64,000 nt of DNA. Origin: a bacterium (GTDB lineage: Bacteria; Patescibacteriota; Minisyncoccia; Phycocordibacterales; SBAW01). Positions 22,989 through 44,618 of this stretch are shown piece after piece. Both the position numbers and the translations under genes were made by a program. The notes beneath the pieces were generated by a model. It had not been told where the DNA came from. It did not search any database and saw only the letters and a program-made list of their open reading frames with translations. The stretch's first letter is position 1, and each line of letters begins with the position of its first letter. The DNA lies in contig JBAXFJ010000001.1 in assembly GCA_037139975.1 (NCBI GenBank), positions 48,586 through 112,585 on the forward strand. Direction: 5' to 3'.

Positions 22989-23177
22989 ACACCAGTTAGA
23001 AAGAGCATGGTCGTGGGCGACACTTTTTCAATGTTTAAAAAAGTTCAATTAAGAACCATCAGGGGTGCCGTTGTAGAGGACGTTAGAACTGTTTTTGAGT
23101 TAAAAAATGATGCGACGGTGTATATCCCCGCATTCTATCCTACTCTTTGAGCCCTCGAACAAGCTTACACTTTGTTT

Positions 23178-23783
23178 TTAACGCCAGATCAATGTATTAA
23201 CCACTTCATTAAGTTGAGACTTCGTACCGTACCCATACATTACCATTCGCAAATACACTCCAGGATATCTCGGGATTTCTATAAAGTACATTGCGCCAAC
23301 CCCTTCGCCGCCAGGAGAGGTATAGGCCAGCTGACCTTTTATCGTCGTTGTGCTGAAAGTATAGCCATCAAGATCCTGTAACATAGAAGTTCTGTCTCGA
23401 ATAACTATTTCAATTTTGCTATTTCCTTTTCCAAAGGAGTCGTTTTGAGGTTGAGGACTTTCTTGATGATAAAGAGAAATGATCTCCGAAGGATGATTAG
23501 AGTCTCTTACCCACCAGTTGGAATATGCAAACGAGAACCCGTACTTACTATCTTCATATGTCCCGGGTCCGCGCATTCGGTTTGTGTCTGTAGTCTGCAC
23601 TACCTCACTCGGAGCAGGCATTTGAATAGTGTTTGTTATTTGTGTCGTCGTTACGGTTTTGTTGGTAGCAACAGATGGAGTTTTGTTTTTTTGTATATAA
23701 AAATACATGCCCCCGCCAACAACGAGAAATGCAACAACCGCAAGTACGATCGGCAGCAAAAAACCCTTTTTAAAATTTTTCAT
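23178..23783 (-). CDS. Hypothetical membrane-anchored protein
   Basis: N-terminal TM helix (LLPIVLAVVAFLVVGGGMYFYI). No motif recognised. Confidence 0.45.
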   Translation of the reverse strand: MKNFKKGFLLPIVLAVVAFLVVGGGMYFYIQKNKTPSVATNKTVTTTQITNTIQMPAPSEVVQTTDTNRMRGPGTYEDSKYGFSFAYSNWWVRDSNHPSEIISLYHQESPQPQNDSFGKGNSKIEIVIRDRTSMLQDLDGYTFSTTTIKGQLAYTSPGGEGVGAMYFIEIPRYPGVYLRMVMYGYGTKSQLNEVVNTLIWR

Positions 23784-23858
23784 GACTTTAGTCTAGCACT
23801 AGTTCGAACCTCAAAAAGGGCACCAAAAACACGCTTGCGAAACAACCCTCAAAAACGC

Positions 23859-23877
23859 TGGGTGGCTACAGGGAATC
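23859..23877 (-). repeat. Direct repeat of the 3'-terminal 19 nt of tRNA-His (tgggtggctacagggaatc)
   Basis: Identical to 24042..24060 and lies 183 bp away. The flanks (cgcttgcgaaacaaccc vs cgcgttgcgaaacagccc) are also partly duplicated. Confidence 0.6.
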
Positions 23878-24003
23878 CTCTTCCCCCGAAACGTTTCAGT
23901 CGCAGGGGCGACATAGAAACGCTTCTCCTCCAGAGCCGGCACGTTTGCTTCACCCTATCGGCGCAAACGTTGCTTTCGATTCCCTAACAACGCTCGCGTT
24001 GCG

Positions 24004-24034
24004 AAACAGCCCGACCAAAAGGCCGGGCTGTTTT
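24004..24034. terminator. 13-bp stem hairpin with AAAA loop and T-run, immediately 3' of tRNA-His
   Basis: AAACAGCCCGaCCAAAAGGcCGGGCTGTTTT. Confidence 0.5.
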
Positions 24035-24041
24035 ATCACCG

Positions 24042-24116
24042 TGGGTGGCTACAGGGAATCGAACCCTGATCGAGAGCTCCACAAGCTCCAGTGTTGACCG
24101 TTACACCATAGCCACC
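24042..24116 (-). tRNA. tRNA-His (anticodon GTG) with encoded G-1
   Basis: Manual fold: 8-bp acceptor stem including G-1:C73, U8, D-stem GTGT/ACAC, anticodon loop TTGTGGA, T-loop TTCGATT. CCA is only partly encoded. Confidence 0.85.
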
Positions 24117-24193
24117 ATATTACTTAGACCCCTCATGTCACACCCGCCCACCATATATACACGCTTACACTAGCACAAGAGCACTTTAGCAGA

Positions 24194-25239
24194 TTAGGGG
24201 TGAAAGAAAAAGGCGACCGCGATGATAGCGTATGCGATGAGCAGCTGCGCGCCCTCGAGCCAATTACTCTCGCCGTCGGCGACGACGAGGTTGACCATGA
24301 GCACCGAGAGGACAATCGCGATGAGCTCGAATATATTGAACACTAAGTTCATGGGGCTGTGGAAAAAGAGCGAGATGATGACGAGCAACGGAGCGACCAG
24401 CATCGCGATTTGCGTTGCCGAGCCGATGGTGATATTGAGCGCCAAGTCCATTCGATTTTTGAGCGCGACCGTGATAGCCGAAGCGTGCTCGGCGGCGTTG
24501 CCGATAATAGCTATAAAAATGACACCGACAAAAAGCTCGGTCCAGCCGAGCTGGAGCACCAGCGGCTCGATGGCGCCGACCAAGATTTCGCTCACCCACG
24601 AAACAAGAAGTGTCGCGACAAGGAGCGTGAGGACTGAGCGCAGCACGCTCCACCTTGGTTCATACTTCCCCACCTCTTCGGTGTAGAGGTGTTTGTGCGT
24701 GCGGAGCGAGAAGAAAAGCCCGGCCAGGTACATGAGGATGAGCGCGCATGAAACCCAAAGGCTTAGGTGCTCAATAATGCGCGTGCCAGCAGTAGGCGCA
24801 GTGAGCAAGAATATCGCCGGCATCACGAGCGCGATGACCGCCAAGAAGAGCGTCGAGCCACCCGCCACCGCGCCTGTTTTATTAAACGACTGCTTCTCGC
24901 GCTTCCAGCCGCCGGCAAACATCGCAAAACCAAGAACCAAGAGCAGGTTGCCGATTATCGAGCCGGTTATCGACGCTTTTACAACTTCAATCAATCCCGC
25001 CCGCAGGGCAAAGATGCCGATAATGAGTTCGGTAGCGTTACCAAACGTGGCGTTGAGGAGGCCACCAAGCGCGGAGTTTGTGCGCGAGGAGAGCTCCTCG
25101 GTTGCCTCGCCAATAAACTTGGCCAGCGGCACAATAGCAAGTGCGCAGAGAAAGAAAACAATGGTGGGCGAGATATGTAAAAAATGCGCCCCAATGGCGA
25201 CGGGCACAAACACAAGCAGGGCGAGAAAGAAATTTTGCA
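24194..25239 (-). CDS. cax: Ca2+/H+ antiporter (CaCA family)
   Basis: GNATELIIGIFALRAGLIEVVKASITGSIIGNLLLVLG and the second alpha-repeat GNAAEHASAITVALKNRMDLALNITIGSATQI. The start probably lies at MQNFFLALLVF; the track ORF begins at the GTG at 25336. My own count of the A-run near 25256 differs from the track by 1 nt, so the start is approximate. Confidence 0.8.
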
Positions 25240-25266
25240 TGGGGTAACTATAGCGCAAAAATATGT

Positions 25267-25285
25267 GTGCCCGGGAGAGGACTCG
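25267..25285 (-). repeat. 19-nt fragment identical to the 3' end of tRNA-Leu (putative distal att repeat)
   Basis: gtgcccgggagaggactcg matches 29680..29698 within tRNA-Leu, in the same orientation and 4.4 kb away. Confidence 0.6.
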
Positions 25286-25351
25286 GTCACAGATACTTTC
25301 TCGGCTCAGAAATTTCTGCGACCCCGCCTCAGTCACCTTCGCTCCTTCCGG
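25285..25351 (-). promoter_or_regulatory. Conserved intergenic module, copy a (upstream of cax)
   Basis: GGTCACA(A/G)AT - palindrome - TTCGCGACCCC..CTC... - TCGCTCC..CCGG. Copies b and c are at 31172 and 31391. Confidence 0.4.
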
Positions 25352-25366
25352 CCTTCGAGTCCTACG

Positions 25367-25414
25367 ACCAAAAAGTTAAAACCGGCACAAGGCCGGTTCT
25401 CAACTTTTCGGTGC
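25367..25414 (-). terminator. Copy of the tRNA-Leu trailer hairpin (AACCGGC-acaag-GCCGGTT plus T-run)
   Basis: 48-nt identity with 29635..29682. Reads as a terminator on the minus strand. Confidence 0.5.
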
Positions 25415-25770
25415 TGTAATTATACACTTTGCGCGAACCTTTTTCGAGCGGAAACTGGACGAATGAACCGAAGCCCCACGCACTGGCGAGTACGCCAGCA
25501 ACCCCGAAAGAAAAAATACTCCTTGCATTTCTGATTTGGCGGGGGTGAAATTTTTCTTGAAAAAGGAAAGGGTGTTTTTCTTTCGGGGTTCTGCCCTCCA
25601 AGTATTCGGGCAGTGCGTGGGGCTTCAATACGGACTCGGCAAAGCGAAAATCTGTTTTTCTGGAGAAAAGGATTTTTCGCTTTGCCTCGACTGATTTTCC
25701 GCCCGCAGGAGGGGTCTGGGGAGGAATGCGGGCGGGAATCCCAATTCGCTTTTTCGGAAAATTTTCCGCC
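25415..25770 (+). repeat. Repeat X (356 bp), copy 1, with nested perfect palindromes
   Basis: Perfect inverted copy at 27261..27616. Internally GAAGCCCCACGCACTG...CAGTGCGTGGGGCTTC (16 bp) encloses AACCCCGAAAGAAAAA...TTTTTCTTTCGGGGTT (16 bp). Track ORF 25362..25628 lies inside it. Confidence 0.7.
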
Positions 25771-25772
25771 CT

Positions 25773-26459
25773 CTAAGAATTAGCAGAAATTTTTCTTGGA
25801 AAGAGTTTACAAAAAATAAGTCCGAAAATTAAACCAGATAAATGTCCCCAATTATCAATTTCAAATGAATCTAACGCCTTTTTGTTTTCAGCAAAGCTGA
25901 AAATCAAAAATAAAAAGATGATCATACCAAAACCTAGTAGATATTCTTTGAATGTTAATTTTGGTATGTCTAACAAGTAAGCAGCGGCTAAACCAAATAA
26001 TCCAGCGGAAGCTCCTGCTGATACCATTGGGTTAGAAAAGAAAAATATTGAAATTGATGAGAGTACTCCACTAAAAATAAAGATTGACAAAAAACGACCA
26101 GCTTTTACGTTTCTTTCATAAAGCGACAATATTCCCAAGAATGATAAATTTGTCCATAGATGTAATAAGTTAAGGTGTATAAAATTGTGTGTGATTGTTT
26201 GTACGAACCACCAAGGAGTAAACGTGTATAAATTATTTACACCTAAAATTACAAACCAATTTTCATTCAACTCATTAAAAGTTCCACTAGAAAGGACGAA
26301 GAAAGTAACGATCAAAAGTATACCCAACCAGAATGTTGCTTGAATTTTTTTGAAACTTTCCCAATAACCTGGTATTTTGGCTTGTAAATCGTTAGGACTG
26401 GGTCGTAAGAAAAAAAGAGTAATGGTCCATACAAGTATGGTTAATAAAAACAGCGTCAT
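25773..26459 (-). CDS. Rhomboid-family intramembrane serine protease
   Basis: Six-TM protein with a GASAGLFGL (GxSx) motif and NWGHLSGLIFG (catalytic His). Confidence 0.65.
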   Translation of the reverse strand: MTLFLLTILVWTITLFFLRPSPNDLQAKIPGYWESFKKIQATFWLGILLIVTFFVLSSGTFNELNENWFVILGVNNLYTFTPWWFVQTITHNFIHLNLLHLWTNLSFLGILSLYERNVKAGRFLSIFIFSGVLSSISIFFFSNPMVSAGASAGLFGLAAAYLLDIPKLTFKEYLLGFGMIIFLFLIFSFAENKKALDSFEIDNWGHLSGLIFGLIFCKLFPRKISANS

Positions 26460-26462
26460 ATT

Positions 26463-26906
26463 TTAAGAAGACTTAGAAAGTAGAAATTCTCTTGTCTTGT
26501 CATCTAATTTTGCGAGCTTCTCAACCCCCTTTAGTTGTGCGTTAAGAATAAGTTTTCTACCGTTAGAAAAAACTAATTGCAAAGGAGCTTGCAGAAATCC
26601 CTTGCCAAGTTTCATTTTTGAAATTTCAGCATAAGAGAAAAAATTGTATGTTTCTGGCTTACCCCATAAACTTAGTTTATGAAGATGCATGCCGTTATTT
26701 GTAACTCCAACATAATAGATTCGCATACCAAAAAACATAAACGGACCAATCAAAAAGAACCACCAAATTGGAGGTGTGTAAGACGCTTGGAAAAAACCAA
26801 TTAGTTCTTCTCCTTGATTAAGACGTGGCAAGATAATATCGCTTTTAATTTGTTCTTTAGTCATATTTTTTATTAGGTAATAATTAAATTTATTTCTTTT
26901 CGACAA
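26463..26906 (-). CDS. Hypothetical membrane-associated protein (bacterial PH-domain-like)
   Basis: 147 aa with a central hydrophobic hairpin (PPIWWFFLIGPFMFFGMRIYYVG). Confidence 0.45.
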   Translation of the reverse strand: MSKRNKFNYYLIKNMTKEQIKSDIILPRLNQGEELIGFFQASYTPPIWWFFLIGPFMFFGMRIYYVGVTNNGMHLHKLSLWGKPETYNFFSYAEISKMKLGKGFLQAPLQLVFSNGRKLILNAQLKGVEKLAKLDDKTREFLLSKSS

Positions 26907-26948
26907 CGCTATTCATAAGTCTACCCCCCCCCGACACTTTTGCAATAC

Positions 26949-27155
26949 TCATTTTATCAAATCGTCAACGCTAATCTCAAGGGCTTTCGCGACCTTTTTT
27001 AGTGTTTCTAGTGTCGGGTTTTTATTTTCTCCAGACTCCATTTTGATAAGCGTATTATTGGCGACATCGGCCAGTCTTGCCAACTTCTCTTGCGAAAGCC
27101 CTTTGGCTTCCCTTAATCGCTTTATATTGTTTGATAAATTTTGGCTTGTTGACAT
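26949..27155 (-). CDS. XRE-family helix-turn-helix transcriptional regulator
   Basis: IKRLREAKGLSQEKLARLADVANNTLIKMESGENKNPTLETLKKVAKAL is a classic Cro/C1-type HTH. 68 aa. Confidence 0.75.
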   Translation of the reverse strand: MSTSQNLSNNIKRLREAKGLSQEKLARLADVANNTLIKMESGENKNPTLETLKKVAKALEISVDDLIK

Positions 27156-27260
27156 ATTACCATTAAGAGATTAACATTATAGTAGAGGTATCCATTTACC
27201 TGTTACTACTATGATGTTACACCAAAATTTTAAACAAATCAATATGTGGAATCTTTTTGT

Positions 27261-27616
27261 GGCGGAAAATTTTCCGAAAAAGCGAATTGGGATTCCCGCC
27301 CGCATTCCTCCCCAGACCCCTCCTGCGGGCGGAAAATCAGTCGAGGCAAAGCGAAAAATCCTTTTCTCCAGAAAAACAGATTTTCGCTTTGCCGAGTCCG
27401 TATTGAAGCCCCACGCACTGCCCGAATACTTGGAGGGCAGAACCCCGAAAGAAAAACACCCTTTCCTTTTTCAAGAAAAATTTCACCCCCGCCAAATCAG
27501 AAATGCAAGGAGTATTTTTTCTTTCGGGGTTGCTGGCGTACTCGCCAGTGCGTGGGGCTTCGGTTCATTCGTCCAGTTTCCGCTCGAAAAAGGTTCGCGC
27601 AAAGTGTATAATTACA
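27261..27616 (-). repeat. Repeat X, copy 2 (inverted relative to copy 1)
   Basis: Reverse complement of 25415..25770. Contains track ORF 27211..27708. Confidence 0.7.
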
Positions 27617-27664
27617 GCACCGAAAAGTTGAGAACCGGCCTTGTGCCGGTTTTAACTTTTTGGT
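27617..27664 (+). terminator. Trailer hairpin copy 2 (inverted orientation), shared junction between repeats X and Y
   Basis: Reverse complement of the 48-nt core at 25367..25414 and 29635..29682. Confidence 0.5.
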
Positions 27665-27910
27665 GTCTGTATTGTACCAAACTCGCACCTATTTCCAAAA
27701 CAAAGTGAGGTAATGACTTCGCACGCTCCGCGTGCGTGGTGACTTGAAACTAAATCGTACGCTCGGATTCTGCGCGCCTCGTCCGCTCCCTGCGGTCGCG
27801 GGAGCAAAAACCAAAAATTTTCCTTCCTTAATTTTAGATTTTCGGCGGGGGGTGTGGGGGGAGCCGACAAAAAATGGAAAGGAAATTTTTGGTTTTGCTT
27901 CGCCGTTTCA
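27665..27910 (+). repeat. Repeat Y (about 246 bp), copy 1, highly structured
   Basis: Inverted copy at 29385..29634. Internal ~21-bp stem AAAACCAAAAATTTTCCTTCC / GGAAAGGAAATTTTTGGTTTT plus hairpins CGCACGC-TCCG-CGTGCG and GCTCCC-N9-GGGAGC. Confidence 0.7.
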
Positions 27911-28140
27911 GTCTCCGAAAAGAGCATCATTATTTTATCATATTTTGATTGCTCTTTTCTCCGCCCTCACGGCGAGACGAGGCGCTTCCTCTCAGCGTTT
28001 GGTGGTAGTTTGAAACTCTGTGTCTTCGGTGACTGGTGGTGATAAACCAAGAAAGCGGAACCTCGCCATACAAAATTCTTTAAGGAATGGCGAGGCACAA
28101 ATCTATATGTGCTTGACCCACCCTCCCGTTCGCGCACAAC

Positions 28141-28183
28141 AATCCCCGCCGTTTTTAGGAAAAATTATAAAACGGCGGGGATT
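28141..28183. terminator. 15-bp perfect-stem hairpin downstream of the pilin gene
   Basis: AATCCCCGCCGTTTT-taggaaaaattat-AAAACGGCGGGGATT. Confidence 0.5.
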
Positions 28184-28209
28184 GCTCCCTTGAAAACCGA
28201 AACTACTAA

Positions 28210-28716
28210 CTACCAAGAGCTACATGCAGGTTCTCCACTGCATATCATCCATGCCCATGTCGGACGAACGGGGTCATAAAACGCCTGTCCTGAACTCGGA
28301 AAACTTTCAGGTCCATTTGCATGCGAGAGTAATTTATAATTTGTTCCATTAGACTGGTAAAGAAATCCAGACCAGCCACTCGTGTCACCACTCGGATCAG
28401 CAGGTAAAACCGAAATATATGTCGGGGTCAATCCGGGAATATAAGCATTTGCACCGCTTGTGGTTCGACTTCCGCCGTTGGCGCTCAATCCATACCAAAC
28501 GCCACTTGTTGATGGATACGAATTATTACTGTCCAGATAAAGTTCAAGTGCTGTTTGTAGTTGTTTCAGCTCCGATTTACGATAAGCATCTCTAGCTTTC
28601 CCTCTTGCACTGTTTAAGCTCGCGAGAACAACACTTGAAAGTATTCCGATGATAGCAATGACGACAAGAAGTTCGATGAGTGTAAAACCTTTTGAATTGT
28701 TTTTTTGTAAAAACAT
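28210..28716 (-). CDS. Type IV pilin (prepilin with N-terminal methylation motif)
   Basis: KGFTLIELLVVIAIIGILSSVVLASL is the class III signal peptide / pilin N-terminus. Confidence 0.8.
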   Translation of the reverse strand: MFLQKNNSKGFTLIELLVVIAIIGILSSVVLASLNSARGKARDAYRKSELKQLQTALELYLDSNNSYPSTSGVWYGLSANGGSRTTSGANAYIPGLTPTYISVLPADPSGDTSGWSGFLYQSNGTNYKLLSHANGPESFPSSGQAFYDPVRPTWAWMICSGEPACSSW

Positions 28717-28726
28717 AATTGAAATA

Positions 28727-29068
28727 TTAAAATCGTTCCTGCAAGCGCGGCGGCGCGTTTTCAGGATAGATTATTTTTTGACCCGGAGGTGCTTCGAGTT
28801 TCGCTTTGCTTCCTCCGCCACTAAACAGAAAAATAATCACGACAATAATCGCCACCGCTACAAATCCAATCAAAACATAATTTGCCTGCTTTTCGTCTTT
28901 GATATATCCGCCGGAATACTTGATGACCCACTGAACTATTTTGGGCGTTGGCGTTTGAAAAGATCGAGGTCGTTGAAACTCCTCGCCCTCAAACACTATT
29001 TTCCCCGGTTCGTTGTTTTGGTCCATAACTTTATAAAAAGTGTTGTTGCAGATTTTAGTTTTCCACAA
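28727..29068 (-). CDS. Hypothetical single-TM membrane protein
   Basis: 113 aa with a C-terminal TM helix (VLIGFVAVAIIVVIIFLF). Confidence 0.45.
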   Translation of the reverse strand: MWKTKICNNTFYKVMDQNNEPGKIVFEGEEFQRPRSFQTPTPKIVQWVIKYSGGYIKDEKQANYVLIGFVAVAIIVVIIFLFSGGGSKAKLEAPPGQKIIYPENAPPRLQERF

Positions 29069-29116
29069 CTATTTTAATTGTATCACTTACGCCCCCCCCG
29101 CAAACGAAAAAGGGGG

Positions 29117-29323
29117 CTACTTCAACAACTTATCCACTGAAACGCCGAGCGCTTGCGCCAATCGTTCCAATTGCTGGATAGTGATGTTTTTCTTGCCATT
29201 CTCGATTGCACTCATATAACTTCTGTCCATATCTAACTTACGACAAATATCGCCTTGCGACATTTTACGGCGAAGCCGTATCTGTTTGATATTCTGTCCG
29301 AGTTTTTTGGAAATTTGAGCCAT
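29117..29323 (-). CDS. XRE-family helix-turn-helix transcriptional regulator
   Basis: IKQIRLRRKMSQGDICRKLDMDRSYMSAIENGKKNITIQQLERLAQAL. 68 aa; paralogous in architecture to 26949..27155. Confidence 0.75.
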   Translation of the reverse strand: MAQISKKLGQNIKQIRLRRKMSQGDICRKLDMDRSYMSAIENGKKNITIQQLERLAQALGVSVDKLLK

Positions 29324-29384
29324 ATTTTAGATATCCACAGTTTAGCAATTATTGCTTTTTTATTCCATATGGTATTATAGTTCC

Positions 29385-29634
29385 ATATGACAACGGCGAA
29401 GCAAAACCAAAAATTTCCTTTCCATTTTTTGTCGGCTCCCCCCACACCCCCCGCCGAAAATCTAAAATTAAGGAAGGAAAATTTTTGGTTTTTGCTCCCG
29501 CGACCGCAGGGAGCGGACGAGGCGCGCAGAATCCGAGCGTACGATTTAGTTTCAAGTCACCACGCACGCGGAGCGTGCGAAGTCATTACCTCACTTTGTT
29601 TTGGAAATAGGTGCGAGTTTGGTACAATACAGAC
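29385..29634 (-). repeat. Repeat Y, copy 2 (inverted)
   Basis: Reverse complement of 27665..27910. Confidence 0.7.
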
Positions 29635-29677
29635 ACCAAAAAGTTAAAACCGGCACAAGGCCGGTTCTCAACTTTTC
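29635..29677 (-). terminator. Intrinsic terminator directly 3' of tRNA-Leu (original copy of the trailer hairpin)
   Basis: On the minus strand: GCACC-gaaaagttgag-AACCGGC-cttgt-GCCGGTT-TTAACTTTTT. Confidence 0.55.
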
Positions 29678-29763
29678 GGTGCCCGGGAGAGGACTCGAAC
29701 CTCCACGCCCGTGAGGGCTTATCCACCTCAAGGATAAATGTCTACCAATTTCAACACCCGGGC
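29678..29763 (-). tRNA. tRNA-Leu (anticodon GAG), long variable arm
   Basis: Manual fold: acceptor GCCCGGG/CCCGGGC, anticodon stem TATCC/GGATA with loop TTGAGGT, variable stem CCC-tcac-GGG, T-loop TTCGAGT, discriminator A. Confidence 0.85.
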
Positions 29764-29774
29764 AACAGGTGTAA

Positions 29775-30296
29775 TTATGCCGCAACTTCCTCCGTTTGTG
29801 GAGCTTCAGTAGCGACGTCTACCTCTACTGCTGGCGCAGTATCCAAAATTTCATCTTCAATCAATGGAGCAACTTCGGCACCTTTCTTTGCAGATGGCGC
29901 CATCTGCACCGACTTGCGCATCGCGCGCTTGACCTCGCGAGTGGCTTTGGTGCGGATGAAATAGAGCTTGGCGCGACGCACCTCGGCACGGCGAAGGATC
30001 TCGATGGAGTCGATCATAGGAGAATAGAGCGGAAAAATCTTTTCAGTCCCGACGCCGCTGGCAACCTTGCGGACGGTAAACATCGAGCCGGCCTCGGTGC
30101 CGTGCTTGACCGCCAAGATGAGCCCCTCGAACGCCTGGGTGCGGGCACTCTTGGTCAACACCTCTTTTTTGTTGGCGCCTTTGGTCTTTTTGAGTTCAAC
30201 GATTTTCTGCCAGACACGCACGGTGTCGCCCGAGCGGAGCCCAAGGCCTGCGCGCTCTTTCATATCAATTGGCGTTGTTTGTATTGCTGATTTCAT
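29775..30296 (-). CDS. rplS: 50S ribosomal protein L19 with C-terminal acidic extension
   Basis: ...RSGDTVRVWQKIVE..., ...FTVRKVASGVGTEKIFPLYSPMIDSIEI... is a canonical L19 core. Confidence 0.9.
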   Translation of the reverse strand: MKSAIQTTPIDMKERAGLGLRSGDTVRVWQKIVELKKTKGANKKEVLTKSARTQAFEGLILAVKHGTEAGSMFTVRKVASGVGTEKIFPLYSPMIDSIEILRRAEVRRAKLYFIRTKATREVKRAMRKSVQMAPSAKKGAEVAPLIEDEILDTAPAVEVDVATEAPQTEEVAA

Positions 30297-30414
30297 TGCT
30301 TAGAGACTGTACCACAGAGCAAAGCACTACGCAAAACACAAACCTTCAGGAGTACAAAAATTTCCTGCTGATAAATTTTCTCAATCCTCGCGCCGACGCG
30401 CTCAGAAGCCTCCT

Positions 30415-31152
30415 TTAGGCTTGTTTTTGCTCCGACAAAATCGCTTCTGCTGTCACAAAATCGGCGGGCAAGGGCGCGGCAAACGTCACCGTTTTGCCTG
30501 TTTTTGGATGTGTCAGGGTTACCGACAATGCATGGAGCGCAAGACGTTTGAACCCAAGCAAAGAAGCGCGCCCAGGCGCATACAGCCGGTCGCACACAAC
30601 AGGGCGCTGCAAAGAAGCAAAGTGCACGCGGATCTGGTGCGTGCGGCCCGTCTTGGGGAAGACTTCCGCATAGGAGACTTCGGGCGAACGGGCGATGATG
30701 CGAAACGTTGTGAGCGCATCGCGCATCAGGCCGTGCGCGCTTTTGGCTTTGACTGAACGAGGACCTGAACCACCGCGGCTGCTGCCGATGGGCTTGTCGA
30801 TGATCCCACGGTCGTCTTTGATGTTGCCATACACAAACACGCGATAGGTTTTTTGCACTTCCCTGTCATGAAACTGTGCCTTCAAATTCTCGTATGACTC
30901 CTGCGTACGAGCAACCAAAAGCACGCCCGACGTCTCGCGGTCGATGCGGTGTACGATGCCCGGCCGCTGAATAACCACCCCCGATTCGAGCGTTTGCTCT
31001 TCCCCCACACCCTCGAGCTCGGGATATTTGGGCAGGAGCCAATCCACCAGCGTGGACTTGGGTGACCGCCCATCAGCATGAACGCTTAAGCCCGCAGGCT
31101 TGTCTATAACGATAAGCGAGTCGTCTTCAAAAAGGATTATTGGTTCGGGCAT
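30415..31152 (-). CDS. RluA-family pseudouridine synthase
   Basis: ...HRIDRETSGVLLVAR... contains the catalytic Asp motif. Confidence 0.85.
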   Translation of the reverse strand: MPEPIILFEDDSLIVIDKPAGLSVHADGRSPKSTLVDWLLPKYPELEGVGEEQTLESGVVIQRPGIVHRIDRETSGVLLVARTQESYENLKAQFHDREVQKTYRVFVYGNIKDDRGIIDKPIGSSRGGSGPRSVKAKSAHGLMRDALTTFRIIARSPEVSYAEVFPKTGRTHQIRVHFASLQRPVVCDRLYAPGRASLLGFKRLALHALSVTLTHPKTGKTVTFAAPLPADFVTAEAILSEQKQA

Positions 31153-31171
31153 AGAGGTGTTGGAGGGACTC

Positions 31172-31250
31172 GGTCACAAATAAATTTTCTGCAGAAAATT
31201 TTTCGCGACCCCGGCTCGCGGTCTCGCCTGCTGGCTCGACATCGCTCCGG
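31172..31250 (-). promoter_or_regulatory. Conserved intergenic module, copy b (between tRNA-Val and the rluA-like gene)
   Basis: GGTCACAAAT-AAATTTTCTGCAGAAAATTT-TTCGCGACCCCGGCTCGCGGT...CATCGCTCCGG. Confidence 0.4.
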
Positions 31251-31285
31251 CTTTCTCGCCCCTCGGATAAATGCTATCGCATTTG

Positions 31286-31358
31286 TGCGCGGTGAGGGGC
31301 TCGAACCCCCGACCTTCTCTGTGTAAAAGAGTTGCTCTACCAACTGAGCTAACCGCGC
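31286..31358 (-). tRNA. tRNA-Val (anticodon TAC)
   Basis: Manual fold: acceptor GCGCGGT/ACCGCGC, D-arm GCTC-AGTTGGTA-GAGC, anticodon loop TTTACAC, T-loop TTCGAGC. CCA is not encoded. Confidence 0.85.
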
Positions 31359-31390
31359 ATTATTGTTTGTTTTGTGCCTTTTGCACACTT

Positions 31391-31479
31391 GGTCACAAAT
31401 ACATTTCTGACGAAATGTTTCGCGACCCCACCTCGCGGTTTTTGCCTTTCGCTACGCTCAAACAAAAACATCGCTCCGG
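31391..31479 (-). promoter_or_regulatory. Conserved intergenic module, copy c (between tRNA-Arg and tRNA-Val)
   Basis: GGTCACAAAT-ACATTTCTGACGAAATGT-TTCGCGACCCCACCTCGCGGT...CATCGCTCCGG. Confidence 0.4.
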
Positions 31480-31529
31480 TTCACAAACGCTAAAAAAGTA
31501 AACCAATTTACTTTTTCTTAACGCGTTTG

Positions 31530-31601
31530 TGCCCCCGCGAGGAATCGGACCTCGATAGCCGGCTTAGAAGTCCGGAGTTCTATCCATTAAACTACAGGGG
31601 C
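31530..31601 (-). tRNA. tRNA-Arg (anticodon TCT)
   Basis: Manual fold: acceptor GCCCCTG/CGGGGGC (U6-G67), anticodon loop CTTCTAA, T-arm CGAGG-TCCGATT-CCTCG. Confidence 0.8.
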
Positions 31602-31645
31602 GACTCTGGGGGCCTGCAGGTGTACAATACCATCACAACCCAATT

Positions 31646-32143
31646 ATGGCTACTTTTCTCAAACAAAAATATTGGCACGAGCTTTTTGAAGCGGGCGTTG
31701 CCTTTAAAGCACTCAACAGCGTGTGGGAGGTGCTGGGCGGCGTCTTTTTGCTCACCCGCCTGCACTTTTGGTTTACGCACCTGGTTGTCCACATCAGTAA
31801 CTCAGAATTCCTCGGCGAGCACGGCGACTTTTTGTCGCGCCTTCTAACCACTCAAGTGTCACACCTCGCGGCCGACTCAACACGTCTCTTTGTCGGTCTG
31901 TACCTCCTCTTCCACGGACTCATGAATGCTTTTTTGGCCTTTAACCTCTACCGCAATCGCCTGTGGTCGTACCCTGTCTCGATTGCCTTCACCTCACTTT
32001 TTCTTGTGTACCAAACATATCGACTGTTCCACACCCATTCCCCACTCCTGCTTTTCATCACCGTGCTCGATGTATTCTTCATCATCCTCACCTGGCATGA
32101 GTGGCAGTTTCAGAAACAAAAAGTAACGAGCAAAGAGAGTTGA
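31646..32143 (+). CDS. Hypothetical 4-TM membrane protein (DUF2127-like)
   Basis: 165 aa with four hydrophobic helices. Confidence 0.5.
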   Translation: MATFLKQKYWHELFEAGVAFKALNSVWEVLGGVFLLTRLHFWFTHLVVHISNSEFLGEHGDFLSRLLTTQVSHLAADSTRLFVGLYLLFHGLMNAFLAFNLYRNRLWSYPVSIAFTSLFLVYQTYRLFHTHSPLLLFITVLDVFFIILTWHEWQFQKQKVTSKES

Positions 32144-32542: not shown

Positions 32543-32596
32543 ATTTGTTTTGGTTTTAAAGGCGACTCCTCAGCTTTGGGAGGTGTTGCCTTGATT

Positions 32597-33662: not shown

Positions 33663-33737
33663 GCTCCCGTCGTTCAACGGATAGGACGCATCCTTGCGGA
33701 GGATGCAATGTAGGTTCGATTCCTGCCGGGAGCACCA
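33663..33737 (+). tRNA. tRNA-Arg (anticodon GCG), CCA encoded
   Basis: Manual fold: acceptor GCTCCCG/CGGGAGC, anticodon stem CATCC/GGATG with loop TTGCGGA, T-arm GTAGG-TTCGATT-CCTGC, 3' end ACCA. Confidence 0.8.
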
Positions 33738-33831
33738 AGTAGGAAATTGCAAGGTGGAGCTCGCCGCCGCGTCGGACGCGGCGGCTCGCGCGTACTGTGT
33801 TTTGGGCTCGAATTCAAATTGGCGATTTCGC
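33732..33831 (+). repeat. IR1-left: 100-bp perfect terminal inverted repeat, starting inside the tRNA-Arg 3' end
   Basis: gcaccaagtaggaaattgcaagg...ggcgatttcgc. Exact reverse complement at 35257..35356. Contains the GC palindrome GCCGCCGCG-tcgga-CGCGGCGGC. Confidence 0.8.
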
Positions 33832-35201
33832 AGAGAATGGTTCGCGCCGATGTTTTTCAGAAATGCTGTCATTCCGCTCAAGTCATTGTGGGAAAGCAGA
33901 TTCGCGGCTTGATTCAAGGACTTTACAAACTCACGAGCTGGTTCGAGCCAAGACACGCCCCTTTGTTCGATGTCGGTGATTTTTTCCTCAACCCTCACTT
34001 TTTGAGATATGAGGATATTCTTTTTGGCGGCGTACTCTGCTGTGGATAGCGCGTCGGCGAGGTAGAGGTTGAGCAACTTTTCTAGTTGGTTGTCCAGTGT
34101 GGTGAGTTCGGTTTTCAAGTTCTCCGCTTCTAGCTTTGCCTCCTCTTTTGCTTTCGTTTCCTCGCTCTCCAACGCCGCCAAAACTTTCTGCGTGTCTTGG
34201 CTCGATAAAGAAACTTTTTGCAGAAACGATTTGATTTGGTTTTCAAGCACATCTTCGCGCAAATATTTCTCGGTACATGCGCCTCGTTTTTTGGTACAGC
34301 GATAGTAGGTGTAGATTCCGCCGTTTCCTTTTGCATATTGCGCTGTAATGCTTGCTCCGCACGAGGCGCACTTCATTAGTCCGAGAAATGCGAATTTGTG
34401 CTTTTTCGTTTCGTGTGTGTTGCCGCGCTTGCTCATCATTTCTTGGCATAAATCAAAAAGTTTCTTTGCAACCAACGGCTCGTGAGTTCCCTCAAAGATT
34501 TCCGCCTTGTATCTCATCAGGCCGATGTAGAACGGATTTTGTAGAATATGCTGAACATTGCTTAATGACACGGGGTTGTTCGCGTTCGTTTTGAGGTCTT
34601 GTTCGGCGCACCAATTTGCGAGAGATTTTAGCGTGTAAGCTCCAGTGGAATACAGTTCGAATAGTTTTTGTACTTTTGGAGCGTTGATGCTGTCCACGTC
34701 AATTCCCCGTGTCTTGGGGTTGTTTATGTATCCCACCGGAGCCCAACCGGGCCAGACGCCGTTCCGTATCTTTTGCCGCAAACCTCGTTTTACGTTTTCT
34801 CGCAAATTGTCGGAGAAATATTTGCTCTGTCCAAAAGCAATATTCAGCATGAACAAACCTTGTGGCGTTGGTTCAAACCAGTGGGTCGGAAATTTGAGGG
34901 AACGAATCAAGCCGCGATCCACCATGTGGATTATCTTGCCCCCGTCTACTGAATTACGCGCGAGACGGTCGGGGTGCCAAGATATGATGCCGTCTGCTTT
35001 CCCACGCTCAATGAATGACAGCATTTCTGCGAACCCTGTTCGCCCGGGCTCTTTTGCGGTTTTCGCCTCGTAGAACGAGGCGACAATATCAAATTTTTCT
35101 TTGGCGGAATACGAAAAAAGCTCAGCAAGCTGAGCTTGGATGCTTAGGACTTGGCGGTCATCTTCTTCGGTGCTTTTCCTTGCGTAGATTACATATTTCA
35201 T
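33832..35201 (-). CDS. Large serine recombinase (resolvase/integrase family); 3' end uncertain
   Basis: MKYVIYARKSTEEDDRQVLSIQAQ... is the catalytic-Ser N-terminus (S10). A recombinase domain, Cys4 zinc ribbon (CASCGAS...CTKKRGAC) and coiled coil follow. The ORF stays open through IR1-left and the tRNA antisense down to 33435. Confidence 0.8.
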
Positions 35202-35256
35202 ATCTCGTTGTGATTACTTGCTAAAGGAATGCCAAAAAGTTTTCTTTTTCCCGAAA

Positions 35257-35356
35257 GCGAAATCGCCAATTTGAATTCGAGCCCAAAACACAGTACGCGC
35301 GAGCCGCCGCGTCCGACGCGGCGGCGAGCTCCACCTTGCAATTTCCTACTTGGTGC
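35257..35356 (-). repeat. IR1-right (inverted copy of 33732..33831)
   Basis: Perfect 100-bp match. Includes cctacttggtgc, the antisense of the tRNA-Arg 3' end. Confidence 0.8.
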
Positions 35357-35449
35357 AGGATACTTGAATTAGTGCGAACCAGCTTCCGCGCCGCCGAAGG
35401 CGGCGCAAACCCCCCGCAGAAAATGCAGGCGGCGAAGCCGCACCGCTCG
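35353..35449 (+). repeat. IR2-left: about 97-bp perfect inverted repeat abutting IR1-right
   Basis: gtgcaggatacttgaattagtgcgaacc...gccgcaccgct. Reverse complement at 36418..36513. Contains GCGCCGCC-gaag-GCGGCGC. Confidence 0.8.
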
Positions 35450-35587
35450 AAAACCGCAAAAGAGCCCGGTGAAAAACATCGGCGCAAACCATTCTCTTTC
35501 GGTGCGGGCGAAGCCCGCTCTGAATTTGTTTCGGGAAAAAGAAAACTTTTTGTCATACAATTTATTTATTAACTCGTTGCTAATTTT

Positions 35588-36340
35588 ATGAATCGAGGAT
35601 TTGCGAACATTGCTTTGATAATCGCTCTAGTCGTTGCCATTATTGGCGGCGCAAGTTATTGGGCTTGGTCGCAAAAGTCGAGCGCGCCTGAAACTTCCGC
35701 AACGACTAAACTGCCAAGTCCACAGCCGAAACCGAACGTAACGAATCAAGTTTCAAATCAGCCAATAAAAACGCAGTACGATGTTGAAACTGATGGTGGA
35801 TTTGGGAATGTTTGCGGAACGTCAACCCAGAGACTTGTGCGAGCGACGTTCGATGGTAAAAAATGGGCCACCACAACACTCTCGGAGTTAGGAACACCAG
35901 GGAAAGACGCCCCACTTTACTGGTTCTTTTCAGCTCCCACAAAAAGCAATCTAATTTTCTTAGGTTCTGCGCATTGTTTTACTGAAGGCGGAGGAGGTGG
36001 TATTTGGTCTTACAGTCTAAAAACCGGTGCGCTCGATGCACTGAGCTTTCCCTACGGCAACCGAGCTCCCACCGATGTATCGCCAGATGGTGCAAGAGTC
36101 GTACAAGTACAAGCGGACATACGGTCTGAAAATCAGACTCTGAGTCTTCTTGACCTCGTCAAAAATACTTCCACTGTGTTGGTGACACTTCCGCAGGGAA
36201 AACATTTTGAGTTTGGTTGCGAACCACTTTCTCCTTGTACGACATCCTCATTACACTGGGTAGATAATTCAACGGTCGAGTACAGTGTCTATGAATCTTC
36301 GCAGACTCCAATAGAGACACATCGGATCAACCTTCCGTAG
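35588..36340 (+). CDS. Hypothetical secreted protein (N-terminal signal/TM anchor)
   Basis: 250 aa. Sole gene between IR2-left and IR2-right. Confidence 0.5.
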   Translation: MNRGFANIALIIALVVAIIGGASYWAWSQKSSAPETSATTKLPSPQPKPNVTNQVSNQPIKTQYDVETDGGFGNVCGTSTQRLVRATFDGKKWATTTLSELGTPGKDAPLYWFFSAPTKSNLIFLGSAHCFTEGGGGGIWSYSLKTGALDALSFPYGNRAPTDVSPDGARVVQVQADIRSENQTLSLLDLVKNTSTVLVTLPQGKHFEFGCEPLSPCTTSSLHWVDNSTVEYSVYESSQTPIETHRINLP

Positions 36341-36417
36341 AACTTCTAATTTCAAAGAACGATGGTGCGTGCTCCGCACGCGCGTACCTAGTCCGCCAAA
36401 GAAAAATTTGATATTGT

Positions 36418-36513
36418 CAGCGGTGCGGCTTCGCCGCCTGCATTTTCTGCGGGGGGTTTGCGCCGCCTTCGGCGGCGCGGAAGCTGGTTCGCACTAATTC
36501 AAGTATCCTGCAC
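36418..36513 (-). repeat. IR2-right
   Basis: Reverse complement of 35353..35449. Confidence 0.8.
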
Positions 36514-44544: not shown

Positions 44545-44618
44545 AAAAGTAGCCTAGCACAACTCACTCAAGGCGACACCTTCCAGAGCTAAGGAGTCGC
44601 CTTAAAACCAAAACATCA

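Follow-up and report, generated by a model that had tools for sequence, protein, structure and literature searches.

How two gene cassettes, each enclosed by long and perfect inverted repeats (IRs), came to lie side by side at the 3' end of a tRNA gene with no recombinase between them is the question raised by a 4.5-kb island (positions 25,267 to 29,763) in a 64,000-nt stretch of Patescibacteria DNA, hereafter the window (GenBank assembly GCA_037139975.1, contig JBAXFJ010000001.1, positions 48,586 to 112,585). Patescibacteria are host-dependent organisms with tiny genomes in which classical mobile elements are thought to be scarce, and the locus bears on the open question of how they exchange and vary surface and accessory genes. 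Our analysis points, with a probability of about 0.7, to an island made of two cargo cassettes without a recombinase gene of their own, arrayed at tRNA-Leu(gag) and derived from a family of tRNA-targeting Patescibacteria elements driven by a large serine recombinase (LSR).

Two inverted-repeat-bracketed cassettes at tRNA-Leu(gag)

A repeat search of the sequence found again the two cassettes that an earlier note on this DNA had described beside tRNA-Leu, each between inverted repeats. The first pair of arms, I1 (25367-25770 and 27261-27664), is 404 nt long when the hairpin that it shares with the second is counted, and the second, I2 (27617-27907 and 29392-29682), is 291 nt long; both pairs are 100% complementary. 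They overlap in a 48-nt hairpin (27617-27664), further copies of which, in direct orientation to each other, lie at 25367-25414 and 29635-29682, three copies in total. Without the hairpin, the arm of the first cassette (X) measures 356 nt, as had been reported (25415-25770 and 27261-27616), and that of the second (Y; 27665-27907 and 29392-29634) 243 nt instead of about 246 nt. The 19-nt direct repeat of the tRNA end, GTGCCCGGGAGAGGACTCG, is likewise exact, its copies lying at 25267-25285 and, one base away from the coordinate first given, at 29679-29697. Repeats of such length and identity cannot arise by chance, and no further copies of X or Y were found in the self-comparison of the 64-kb window. 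The proposal that this is foreign, tRNA-linked DNA is also borne out by its composition, with a GC content of about 32% in cassette A and about 43% in cassette B as compared to 52-57% in the flanks. Junction reading showed that the 3' end of tRNA-Leu, ...GGGCAC, meets hairpin hp3 at the core CAC (Table 1).

Pfam analysis of the six open reading frames (ORFs) of the island detected no recombinase, as the earlier note had stated. The description of a recombinase-free system nevertheless applies to the island itself and not to its kind, because in complete members of the family an LSR separates the cassette from the tRNA.

An intact sister element at tRNA-Arg(gcg)

Self-comparison of the whole window revealed a second chained pair of perfect IRs, 4 kb from the island and starting at the last bases of tRNA-Arg(gcg), where one pair of arms brackets an LSR gene and the other a cargo gene (Table 1). 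The recombinase has the domain set of an LSR (PF00239, E-value 2e-21; PF07508; PF13408), neither the YARKST motif nor the zinc-ribbon cysteines vary in our LSR alignment (A1), and there is distant similarity, including structure matches, to the SPbeta and A118 integrases, with 22-31% identity to phage integrases. Judged by its sequence, this enzyme is a bona fide but distant LSR. Its outer sites (tRNA, GCAC and arm a at one end; arm b', GCAC and flank at the other) share the core in direct orientation.

Homologues of this LSR number in the thousands. The best 120 are at least 67% identical, typically 490-520 amino acids (aa) long and from Patescibacteria wherever a name is given, and many lie on contigs of only 1.6-1.8 kb. 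In three longer contigs from NCBI, ENA and JGI (L008, L009 and L010; L numbers refer to loci in other assemblies), the LSR unit has arms of about 100 nt with 1421-1426 nt between them and adjoins the 3' end of tRNA-Arg(tct), (ccg) or (tcg), with LSR and tRNA convergent. In L008 and L009 a second IR-bracketed cassette lies next to this unit, its arms being kept and its cargo protein not conserved. Furthermore, the arm pairs of L009 are only 85% and 89% complementary, and the differing arms must therefore be two physically distinct copies. Sequence and spacing of the Arg-type unit are kept in four independent assemblies, and its junctions (marked here and below by a caret) are conserved as tRNA ...GCAC^CAAGTAGGAAATTGCAAGG... 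and ...CCTTGCAATTTCCTACTTG^GTGC^AGGATACTTGAATTAG....

The LSR reading frame ends inside the tRNA-proximal arm region. In the window, the frame has no stop where the homologues end (about 492 aa) and continues antisense through tRNA-Arg to 33435, reaching 588 aa; the C-terminal tail is set by the sequence past the junction and would therefore differ between integrated, excised and flipped states. Additionally, a 30-nt stretch of the 5' coding region (35082-35111, about codons 30-40) is repeated in inverted orientation at 36389-36418, just inside arm b', and is 97% conserved in L008 and L009. Possible roles of the repeat are those of an antisense target or of a regulatory or accessory site. Elsewhere in the window, a 49-nt inverted repeat of 90% identity links two distant intergenic regions (32546-32594 and 44568-44615).

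The X module and its constant syntax in Patescibacteria

When a spurious ORF across X was translated and used as bait, it matched 779 database proteins in several lineages of Patescibacteria, many of them 80-93% identical and most encoded on very short contigs, and an exact 30-mer from X was present in at least 120 metagenome contigs. The X-locus counts below were made among the matches listed for this 30-mer scan, that of two-copy loci by hand from the table; the convergent loci were counted by hand over all fetched loci, those of the LSR homologues and of the bait search included. A complete element consists of a tRNA 3' end, an LSR unit with inverted arms of 93-159 nt, a cargo cassette with X-type arms of 330-490 nt, and the flank. 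In a 162-kb contig (L011), for instance, tRNA-Leu(gag) is followed by a 147-nt IR around an LSR of 510 aa and then by an X-type IR of about 400 nt that encloses an XRE gene and a gene of 183 aa, with more cargo and a Y-like region beyond; its outer junctions read ...GCAC^c at tRNA-Leu and ACAC^flank at the X tip. L013 presents tRNA-Leu(tag), a 140-nt IR around an LSR of 522 aa, X, XRE and a bPH_2 protein, and L012 an XRE cassette with X at either end. The Leu-type LSRs of these X contexts are 41-44% identical to the Arg-type enzyme of the window. The window X is 95-97% identical to those of L011, L012 and L013 and 92-97% identical across hosts, and positions 26843-27621, which comprise XRE-A and X, are 92% identical to L013 despite the different hosts.

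The surroundings of X were constant. On its inner side an XRE gene lies about 100-140 nt away, and on the tip side an LSR, where visible, about 130-440 nt away. The LSRs near X adjoin the 3' ends of tRNA-Arg, Leu, Val, Tyr or Glu, the LSR-adjacent target always being a tRNA 3' end, and the LSR is convergent with the adjacent tRNA in all 13 fetched loci that show both. Loci with two X copies have them inverted with the tips outward without exception (24/24), 1.7-5 kb apart and around varying cargo, and the XRE gene adjoins the LSR-proximal or tRNA-proximal arm in nearly all loci. Many X copies stand at contig ends. This layout recurs in dozens of independent Patescibacteria assemblies, and arm pairs that have diverged occur in L092 (92%), L039 (87%), L117 (82%) and the LSR arms of L020 (86%). 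The earlier note had reckoned with X being a widespread and randomly scattered family of miniature inverted-repeat transposable elements (MITEs); widespread it is, but always in the same syntax.

Some loci are more elaborate. L050 (3755-9526) has three consecutive IR-bracketed units, namely cargo, LSR and X cassette, and beyond the distal X arm of L020 (278-5705) there is another LSR-type arm. In L070, L084, L094, L108 and L115, the 5' end of a tRNA gene lies 4-67 nt downstream of an X tip, which has an outward promoter-like site and could drive transcription of this gene.

A comparison of the tRNA-Leu locus among relatives for presence or absence of the island, as the earlier note had suggested, was informative in part. 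Judged by its conserved neighbours (an RluA-type pseudouridine synthase and L19), the window belongs to Candidatus Adlerbacteria. The nearest species representatives in GTDB have only about 59% amino-acid identity and are too distant to provide an empty site, but the order RluA-L19-tRNA-Leu(gag) is kept and the contigs of two of these relatives (L003 and L004) end at or near tRNA-Leu. In addition, a related member of the Adlerbacteria (L005, 11247-15983) has an LSR of 549 aa and a primase/helicase-type gene directly on the 3' end of tRNA-Leu(gag); this LSR is a different one (24% identical), its frame, too, extends into the tRNA, and long IRs are absent.

Junctions, tips and hairpins

Read outward from the tRNA, two kinds of unit alternate, 'CC...GG' units that hold the LSR within arms a/c and 'TG...CA' units that hold the cargo within arms X, Y or b. 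Every junction reads (G/A)CAC^C(A) or its complement, the CCA of the tRNA being supplied by the arm tip. In an LSR-plus-cargo pair the two outer junctions are directly oriented, as attL and attR should be, and the inner one repeats, in inverted orientation, the site that would result from excision. The cargo tips exist in two homologous versions, type 1 (...GGTTCGCGCAAAGTGTATAATTACAGCAC; n=9), to which X of the window belongs, and type 2 (...GGTGCGAGCTTGGTACAATAnAgACAC; n=87), to which Y belongs; LSR-arm-type sequence comes next in 59 of the 87 type-2 tips, and the type-2 tip of the window has 118 matches in other loci. A palindromic crossover dinucleotide, which would make the units independently excisable, was ruled out because type-2 tips have ACAC, with no palindromic dinucleotide at the junction. 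The tips contain GGT(T/G)CG(A/C) 17-19 nt before CAC, and the tRNA has its T-loop GGTTCGA 13 nt before CAC. This offset resembles the shift reported for the A118-type (LI) integrase, whose zinc-domain motif stands 5 bp nearer the centre of attB than that of attP (PMC3783163), a likeness that is suggestive only.

All three 'CC...GG' slots of the island hold a hairpin of 44-48 nt in place of an LSR unit. In L057 and L111 a hairpin lies between the X tip and the 3' end of tRNA-Arg(cct) and its halves are genuine LSR-arm tips (CAATACAGAACTCAACGGC...), L047 has a longer collapse of a real arm adjoining the X tip, and similar mini-units were seen in L110, L024 and L131. By analogy with these loci, the window hairpin is probably a collapsed LSR unit. 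The earlier note had taken it for the trailer and terminator of the tRNA; it is indeed terminator-like, but it sits in the slot of the LSR unit and is probably more than the native trailer.

The X core is a conserved fold

The core of X, about 260 nt, folds into 8 helices with 64 pairs in a consensus of 45 distinct X cores. In this alignment 98.9% of the cells were paired as compared to about 50% in slid controls, 13 pairs showed compensatory double changes (for example GGCAAAGCG/CGCTTTGCC to GGTTTTGCC/GGCAAAACC), and none of 500 shuffles reached any of the measures. Furthermore, there were 188 G-U cells and 14 A-C cells, with four fixed G-U pairs, and this excess of G-U indicates that the folded strand runs from the inner end, on the XRE side, to the tip. 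At the proximal arm this strand has the sense of the LSR and at the distal arm that of the cargo operon, and the promoter-like and terminator-like sites are oriented in line with it. Rfam (cmscan of positions 23000-32000, E-value limit 1) returned only tRNAs and a chance-level mir-991 match in Y (25 bits, gathering threshold 100). Altogether, the data describe the X core as a single-stranded element with a conserved fold, most likely an RNA, which might act as leader of the LSR transcript at the proximal arm and as 3' untranslated region of the cargo operon at the distal one.

A possible origin of the island and its difficulties

The history suggested by these data begins with an LSR that would integrate a circular element composed of LSR unit and cargo, with the crossover in the CAC core at the discriminator/CCA position of the tRNA. 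The cassette tips would be recombinase half-sites that mimic the tRNA 3' end, arrays could grow by successive integrations, and LSR units would decay to hairpins and leave behind cassettes that may be mobile only with an LSR in trans. The empty site expected from this model would read tRNA-Leu...GGGCAC^ACATATTTTTGCG.

Several points weigh against this origin. The 64-kb window contains no Leu-type LSR, and present-day mobility of the island is thus unproven. Neither a circular form, recognisable as a contig with direct terminal overlap, nor an empty site was recovered. A search of 133 loci and of IMG/VR for an LSR-arm tip with the hairpin sequence of the window gave no match, and the hairpin could instead be the native terminator of the tRNA. 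The left boundary (25267-25366) is unaccounted for, since LSR integration normally makes no 19-nt direct repeat, and the model gives no purpose either for the internal inverted site or for arms far beyond the length of a recombinase site. Moreover, the orientation of cassettes A and B cannot be trusted in this short-read assembly, whose arms are 100% identical and longer than the reads, and the RNA nature of X is not proven, as G-T wobble also forms in single-stranded DNA.

With regard to circles, L042 has a terminal inverted repeat of 602 nt instead, and L020 was rejected as a circle because the identity between its distal arm and the one on the tRNA side is only 83%. The left boundary itself is a mosaic of a T-arm-like piece, a segment like the spacer of L004 and the exact 19-nt tRNA-Leu end. 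Its positions 25285-25330 (46 nt) are 87% identical to the tRNA-Arg(gcg)/tRNA-Arg(ccg) spacer of L004; ARAGORN found no tRNA-Arg(ccg) in the 64-kb window, and L004, L005 and L009 have gcg and ccg in tandem. This composition could reflect an earlier rearrangement that involved the Arg and Leu loci.

A broader reading, which we put forward only tentatively, is that Patescibacteria possess at their tRNA genes an LSR-driven system for the capture and shuffling of cassettes, analogous to integrons or shufflons. Tips that mimic tRNA 3' ends would serve as new docking sites, modules would be invertible through the sites in long, homogenised IRs, and X (about 260 nt, at the 3' end of each cassette strand) would take part, where it could be a recombinase-associated RNA, a regulatory leader or a fold of single-stranded DNA formed after DNA uptake.

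Inversion and the alternative explanations

The origin from tRNA-targeting LSR elements has to be weighed first against a phase-variable switch of the shufflon or inverton type, in which the perfect IRs would mainly serve to let an LSR in trans or RecA flip the cassettes frequently and thereby vary surface proteins such as the pilin and the rhomboid protease within the population. That modules of this kind invert, as the earlier note had surmised, is correct for the LSR units, which occur in both orientations. They are flipped with respect to X in L127, L116 and L079, and apparently in L050, which was counted as flipped without comparison to a relative. Alignments within the same subfamily place the breakpoints in the arms for L127 (against L101, L129 and L011) and L116 (against L013). 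These flips are credible because the arms (93-114 nt) are shorter than the reads, and the LSR stays intact in either orientation because its frame ends in its arm, as a switch would need. The agent of flipping might be either the LSR or homologous recombination. Each long arm contains a complete junction site, with the sites alternating in orientation, hence each unique segment can invert; in addition, the cargo comprises a pilin-like protein and an intramembrane rhomboid protease. L076 and the pair L017/L106 (99.8%) even look like cargo flips, but the X arms exceed the read length and these may be arbitrary choices of the assembler. A further candidate, L025/L119, was discarded as an inversion pair because both fit one single arrangement. 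What speaks against the switch is that each cassette starts with its own XRE regulator and has promoter-like sites inside the invertible part, so that flipping would not obviously switch expression; the promoter-switching form of phase variation is for this reason unlikely. Orientation is also strongly biased, with 18 canonical and 4 flipped LSRs at X tips, and the side of the XRE gene is near constant. We therefore regard such a switch as unlikely.

The island could also be the classical product of a tyrosine integrase, with the 19-nt repeat as att core and the IRs as unrelated secondary duplications. The exact copy of the tRNA 3' end at the far boundary, the foreign GC content and the partial tRNA 3' ends at distal ends elsewhere (e.g. 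L099 and L130) would agree with it. No tyrosine recombinase was detected in the six island ORFs or in the genes called about 10 kb to either side, however, the island shares its arms, tips and core junctions with the LSR element family, and bracketing by IRs is a conserved feature of that family, all of which makes this origin improbable.

We consider it very improbable that X and Y form a composite transposon or a MITE pair moved by a transposase encoded elsewhere. The high conservation of X, its many copies across metagenomes, often on very short contigs, and the TG...CA ends of the cassettes would agree with it, but there are no target-site duplications, the flanking cores are inverted mirror images instead of direct repeats, and the 64-kb window holds no extra copies. 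X was never solitary, with XRE on one side and an LSR arm, a collapsed hairpin or a tRNA on the other, a context fixed in at least 120 loci, and paired copies had all tips outward in 24 loci.

An assembly artefact, in which a de Bruijn path crosses single-copy X, Y and hairpin nodes twice owing to a strain-level inversion polymorphism, is equally hard to credit: it would fit arms of 100% identity that exceed typical k-mers in length, the SPAdes-style metagenome assembly of the source contig and the breaks at the locus in the relatives' contigs L003 and L004, but diverged, physically distinct arm pairs exist in L009, L092, L039, L117 and L020, the same layout appears in NCBI, ENA and JGI assemblies from different pipelines, and L011 may be a long-read assembly, as inferred from its record name 'contig_2384' only. 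Origins by fold-back, by chimera formation in multiple displacement amplification or from a hairpin telomere fit ill with unique single-copy interiors.

Genes and signals of the cassettes

Each cassette carries three genes on the minus strand with the XRE regulator first (Table 1). The Pfam results agree with the earlier identification of the rhomboid protease, the two XRE regulators and the N_methyl pilin. The label 'PH-like' for the 133-aa protein of cassette A was not supported, since it has no Pfam match and no resemblance to the bPH_2 protein of L013. Only the XRE gene of cassette A and its upstream region are kept in other loci, and exact copies of the island proteins in other assemblies were not found beyond the source contig (NODE_6_length_247420_cov_69 of ENA assembly ERZ4222710).

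The cassettes had also been called promoter-less, which was not confirmed: promoter-like sites are present at all four arm tips and at the start of XRE-A; promoter-like and terminator-like are used here for consensus matches only. Outward sites lie at the Y tips (29601-29628, plus strand; 27698-27671, minus strand) and at the X tips (27584-27612, plus strand; 25447-25419, minus strand), and a TTGACA-17-TAACAT site (27149-27177, plus strand) reads from the XRE-A start into X. Additionally, the hairpin copies are all terminator-like, in each case on the strand that a transcript arriving from the tRNA or in X sense would follow. Both cassettes have a homopolymer tract in the corresponding position, after the stop codon of the XRE gene and before the second gene (26922-26935 and 29092-29100). 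These tracts, C9 and C8 on the plus strand and thus G9 and G8 on the coding strand, are possible sites of slipped-strand mispairing or attenuation.

Table 1. Features of the tRNA-Leu(gag) island and of the tRNA-Arg(gcg) sister element, in window coordinates
Feature	Positions	Strand	Basis and remarks
Exact 19-nt copy of tRNA-Leu 3' end, distal island boundary	25267..25285	-	Direct repeat D7, 100%; ends in core CAC
Spacer, 81 nt	25286..25366	.	Decayed tRNA T-arm-like piece (AGGACTCGAA), inverted, adjoining hp1
Hairpin hp1	25367..25414	-	Terminator-like on minus strand
X arm, distal	25415..25770	-	I1; core 25474-25735, sense minus, as cassette A operon
Cassette A, unique part	25771..27260	-	ORFs, gene calls, Pfam; GC about 32%
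Rhomboid protease, cassette A	25773-26459	-	Pfam
133-aa protein, cassette A	26463-26864	-	No Pfam match
XRE-A regulator	26949-27155	-	Pfam HTH_3
X arm, tRNA-proximal	27261..27616	+	I1, 100%; core 27296-27557, sense plus; type-1 tip ending GTGTATAATTACAGCAC
Hairpin hp2, inverted relative to hp1 and hp3	27617..27664	+	Common to both IR pairs; terminator-like on plus strand
Y arm, distal, inverted	27665..27907	-	I2
Cassette B, unique part	27908..29391	-	ORFs, gene calls, Pfam; GC about 43%
Conserved non-coding stretch, cassette B	27908-28209		74-84% identical to L011 and L060
Type IV pilin-like protein, cassette B	28210-28716	-	Pfam N_methyl
99-aa protein, cassette B	28727-29026	-	No Pfam match; 'membrane protein' is the label of the earlier note
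XRE-B regulator	29117-29323	-	Pfam HTH_3
Y arm, tRNA-proximal	29392..29634	+	I2, 100%; Y core hairpin and type-2 long tip ending TTGGTACAATACAGACAC
Hairpin hp3, 'CC...GG' mini-unit in LSR-unit slot	29635..29682	-	Terminator-like on minus strand behind tRNA
tRNA-Leu(gag), array anchor	29678..29763	-	ARAGORN; Rfam tRNA, 43 bits
tRNA-Arg(gcg), anchor of intact sister element	33663..33737	+	ARAGORN, junction reading
LSR unit	33732..35356	-	Arms a 33732-33831 and a' 35257-35356; IR 100 nt, 100%
LSR gene, about 490 aa	33726-35201	-	Pfam Resolvase, Recombinase, Zn_ribbon_recom
Cargo cassette of Arg element	35353..36513	+	Arms b 35353-35447 and b' 36419-36513; IR 95 nt, 100%
250-aa predicted membrane or secreted protein, Arg cargo	35588-36340		Unknown family

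Implications

The element family is very widespread, with thousands of recombinase homologues and at least 120 contigs that carry X, and its grammar is simple: a tRNA end, a recombinase unit and a cargo cassette, with inverted repeats as brackets. It moves near-identical DNA between host lineages (X 92-97% identical). In addition, it provides a compact set of natural LSR/site pairs, possibly directed at conserved features of tRNAs, a structured non-coding element that is new, conserved and clearly covarying, and a model of array growth, inversion and decay that can be tested directly. It also carries a warning for metagenome-assembled genomes built from short reads, in which gene orientation between such arms is unreliable and contigs often break.

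Comparison with known systems

The literature that we searched held no description of an IR-bracketed LSR/cassette architecture, and a paper on horizontal gene transfer in groundwater Patescibacteria made no mention of recombinases or tRNAs; the coverage of this search is incomplete and a prior description possible, but the architecture seems to be undescribed. Several known systems share parts of it. DNA invertases and shufflons switch the 3' ends of genes or promoters, the Hin/Gin/Cin/Pin enzymes being small serine recombinases with sites of about 26 bp and the Rci shufflon using a tyrosine recombinase with sites of about 19 bp. They resemble our elements in the inverted sites around segments, the recombinase inside or beside them, the pilin cargo and the alternating orientation of the sites. 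In contrast, the elements described here have an LSR of 490 aa, arms of 90-490 nt and whole operons with a regulator, and they are anchored at tRNA genes; small serine invertases are proteins of about 190 aa with a C-terminal helix-turn-helix, two sites of about 26 bp and a Fis-bound enhancer, as compared to an LSR of about 490 aa and arms of 91-404 nt in the window. Integrons likewise array small cassettes at a fixed platform, with imperfect-palindrome hairpin sites between them; every integron cassette ends in an attC, and all point the same way. In our case there is no IntI, attI or Pc, nor was a tyrosine recombinase detected in the stretch given above, the hairpins alternate in orientation, and the cassettes have their own regulator and long arms.

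The yeast 2-micron plasmid, with its FLP/FRT system, and plastid genomes have two unique segments between long IRs that are kept identical, and exist as flip-flop isomers. Unique segments between long IRs that contain a recombinase site are thus common to both, but here the recombinase is a serine and not a tyrosine enzyme, the element is integrated at a tRNA, no role in replication or copy number is evident and no circle was found.

Closer in lifestyle are the tycheposons of Prochlorococcus, cargo elements that insert at a handful of tRNA genes and accumulate in arrays within hypervariable islands, where partial copies of tRNAs and degraded remnants stay behind; a large serine recombinase is used by a minority of them (10.1101/2020.12.28.424599). 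Most have tyrosine recombinases, usually also replication modules, and are bounded by direct partial-tRNA repeats, and the available portion of that account does not present IR-bracketed modules or a structured non-coding arm as features (10.1101/2020.12.28.424599). The island has the 19-nt partial tRNA repeat and neither a recombinase nor a replication gene; no replication gene was seen in the related complete elements.

Lastly, LSR phages and elements such as A118/LI, SPbeta (SprA), phiC31 and Bxb1 encode the same combination of Resolvase, Recombinase and zinc ribbon domains, have the gene beside the attachment site, and share a short core in direct orientation between their outer junctions. 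The Patescibacteria elements differ from them in being tiny, with an LSR and one to few cargo genes and no phage, replication or transfer genes, and in that both unique parts lie within long, often perfect IRs, an inverted copy of the presumed attP is found inside, the recombinase frame ends in the arm and runs over the junction into the tRNA, and elements are chained and accompanied by a conserved folded non-coding module. The shared direct core at a specific target, as seen in the Arg element of the window and in L011, is that of an LSR-type integrative element.

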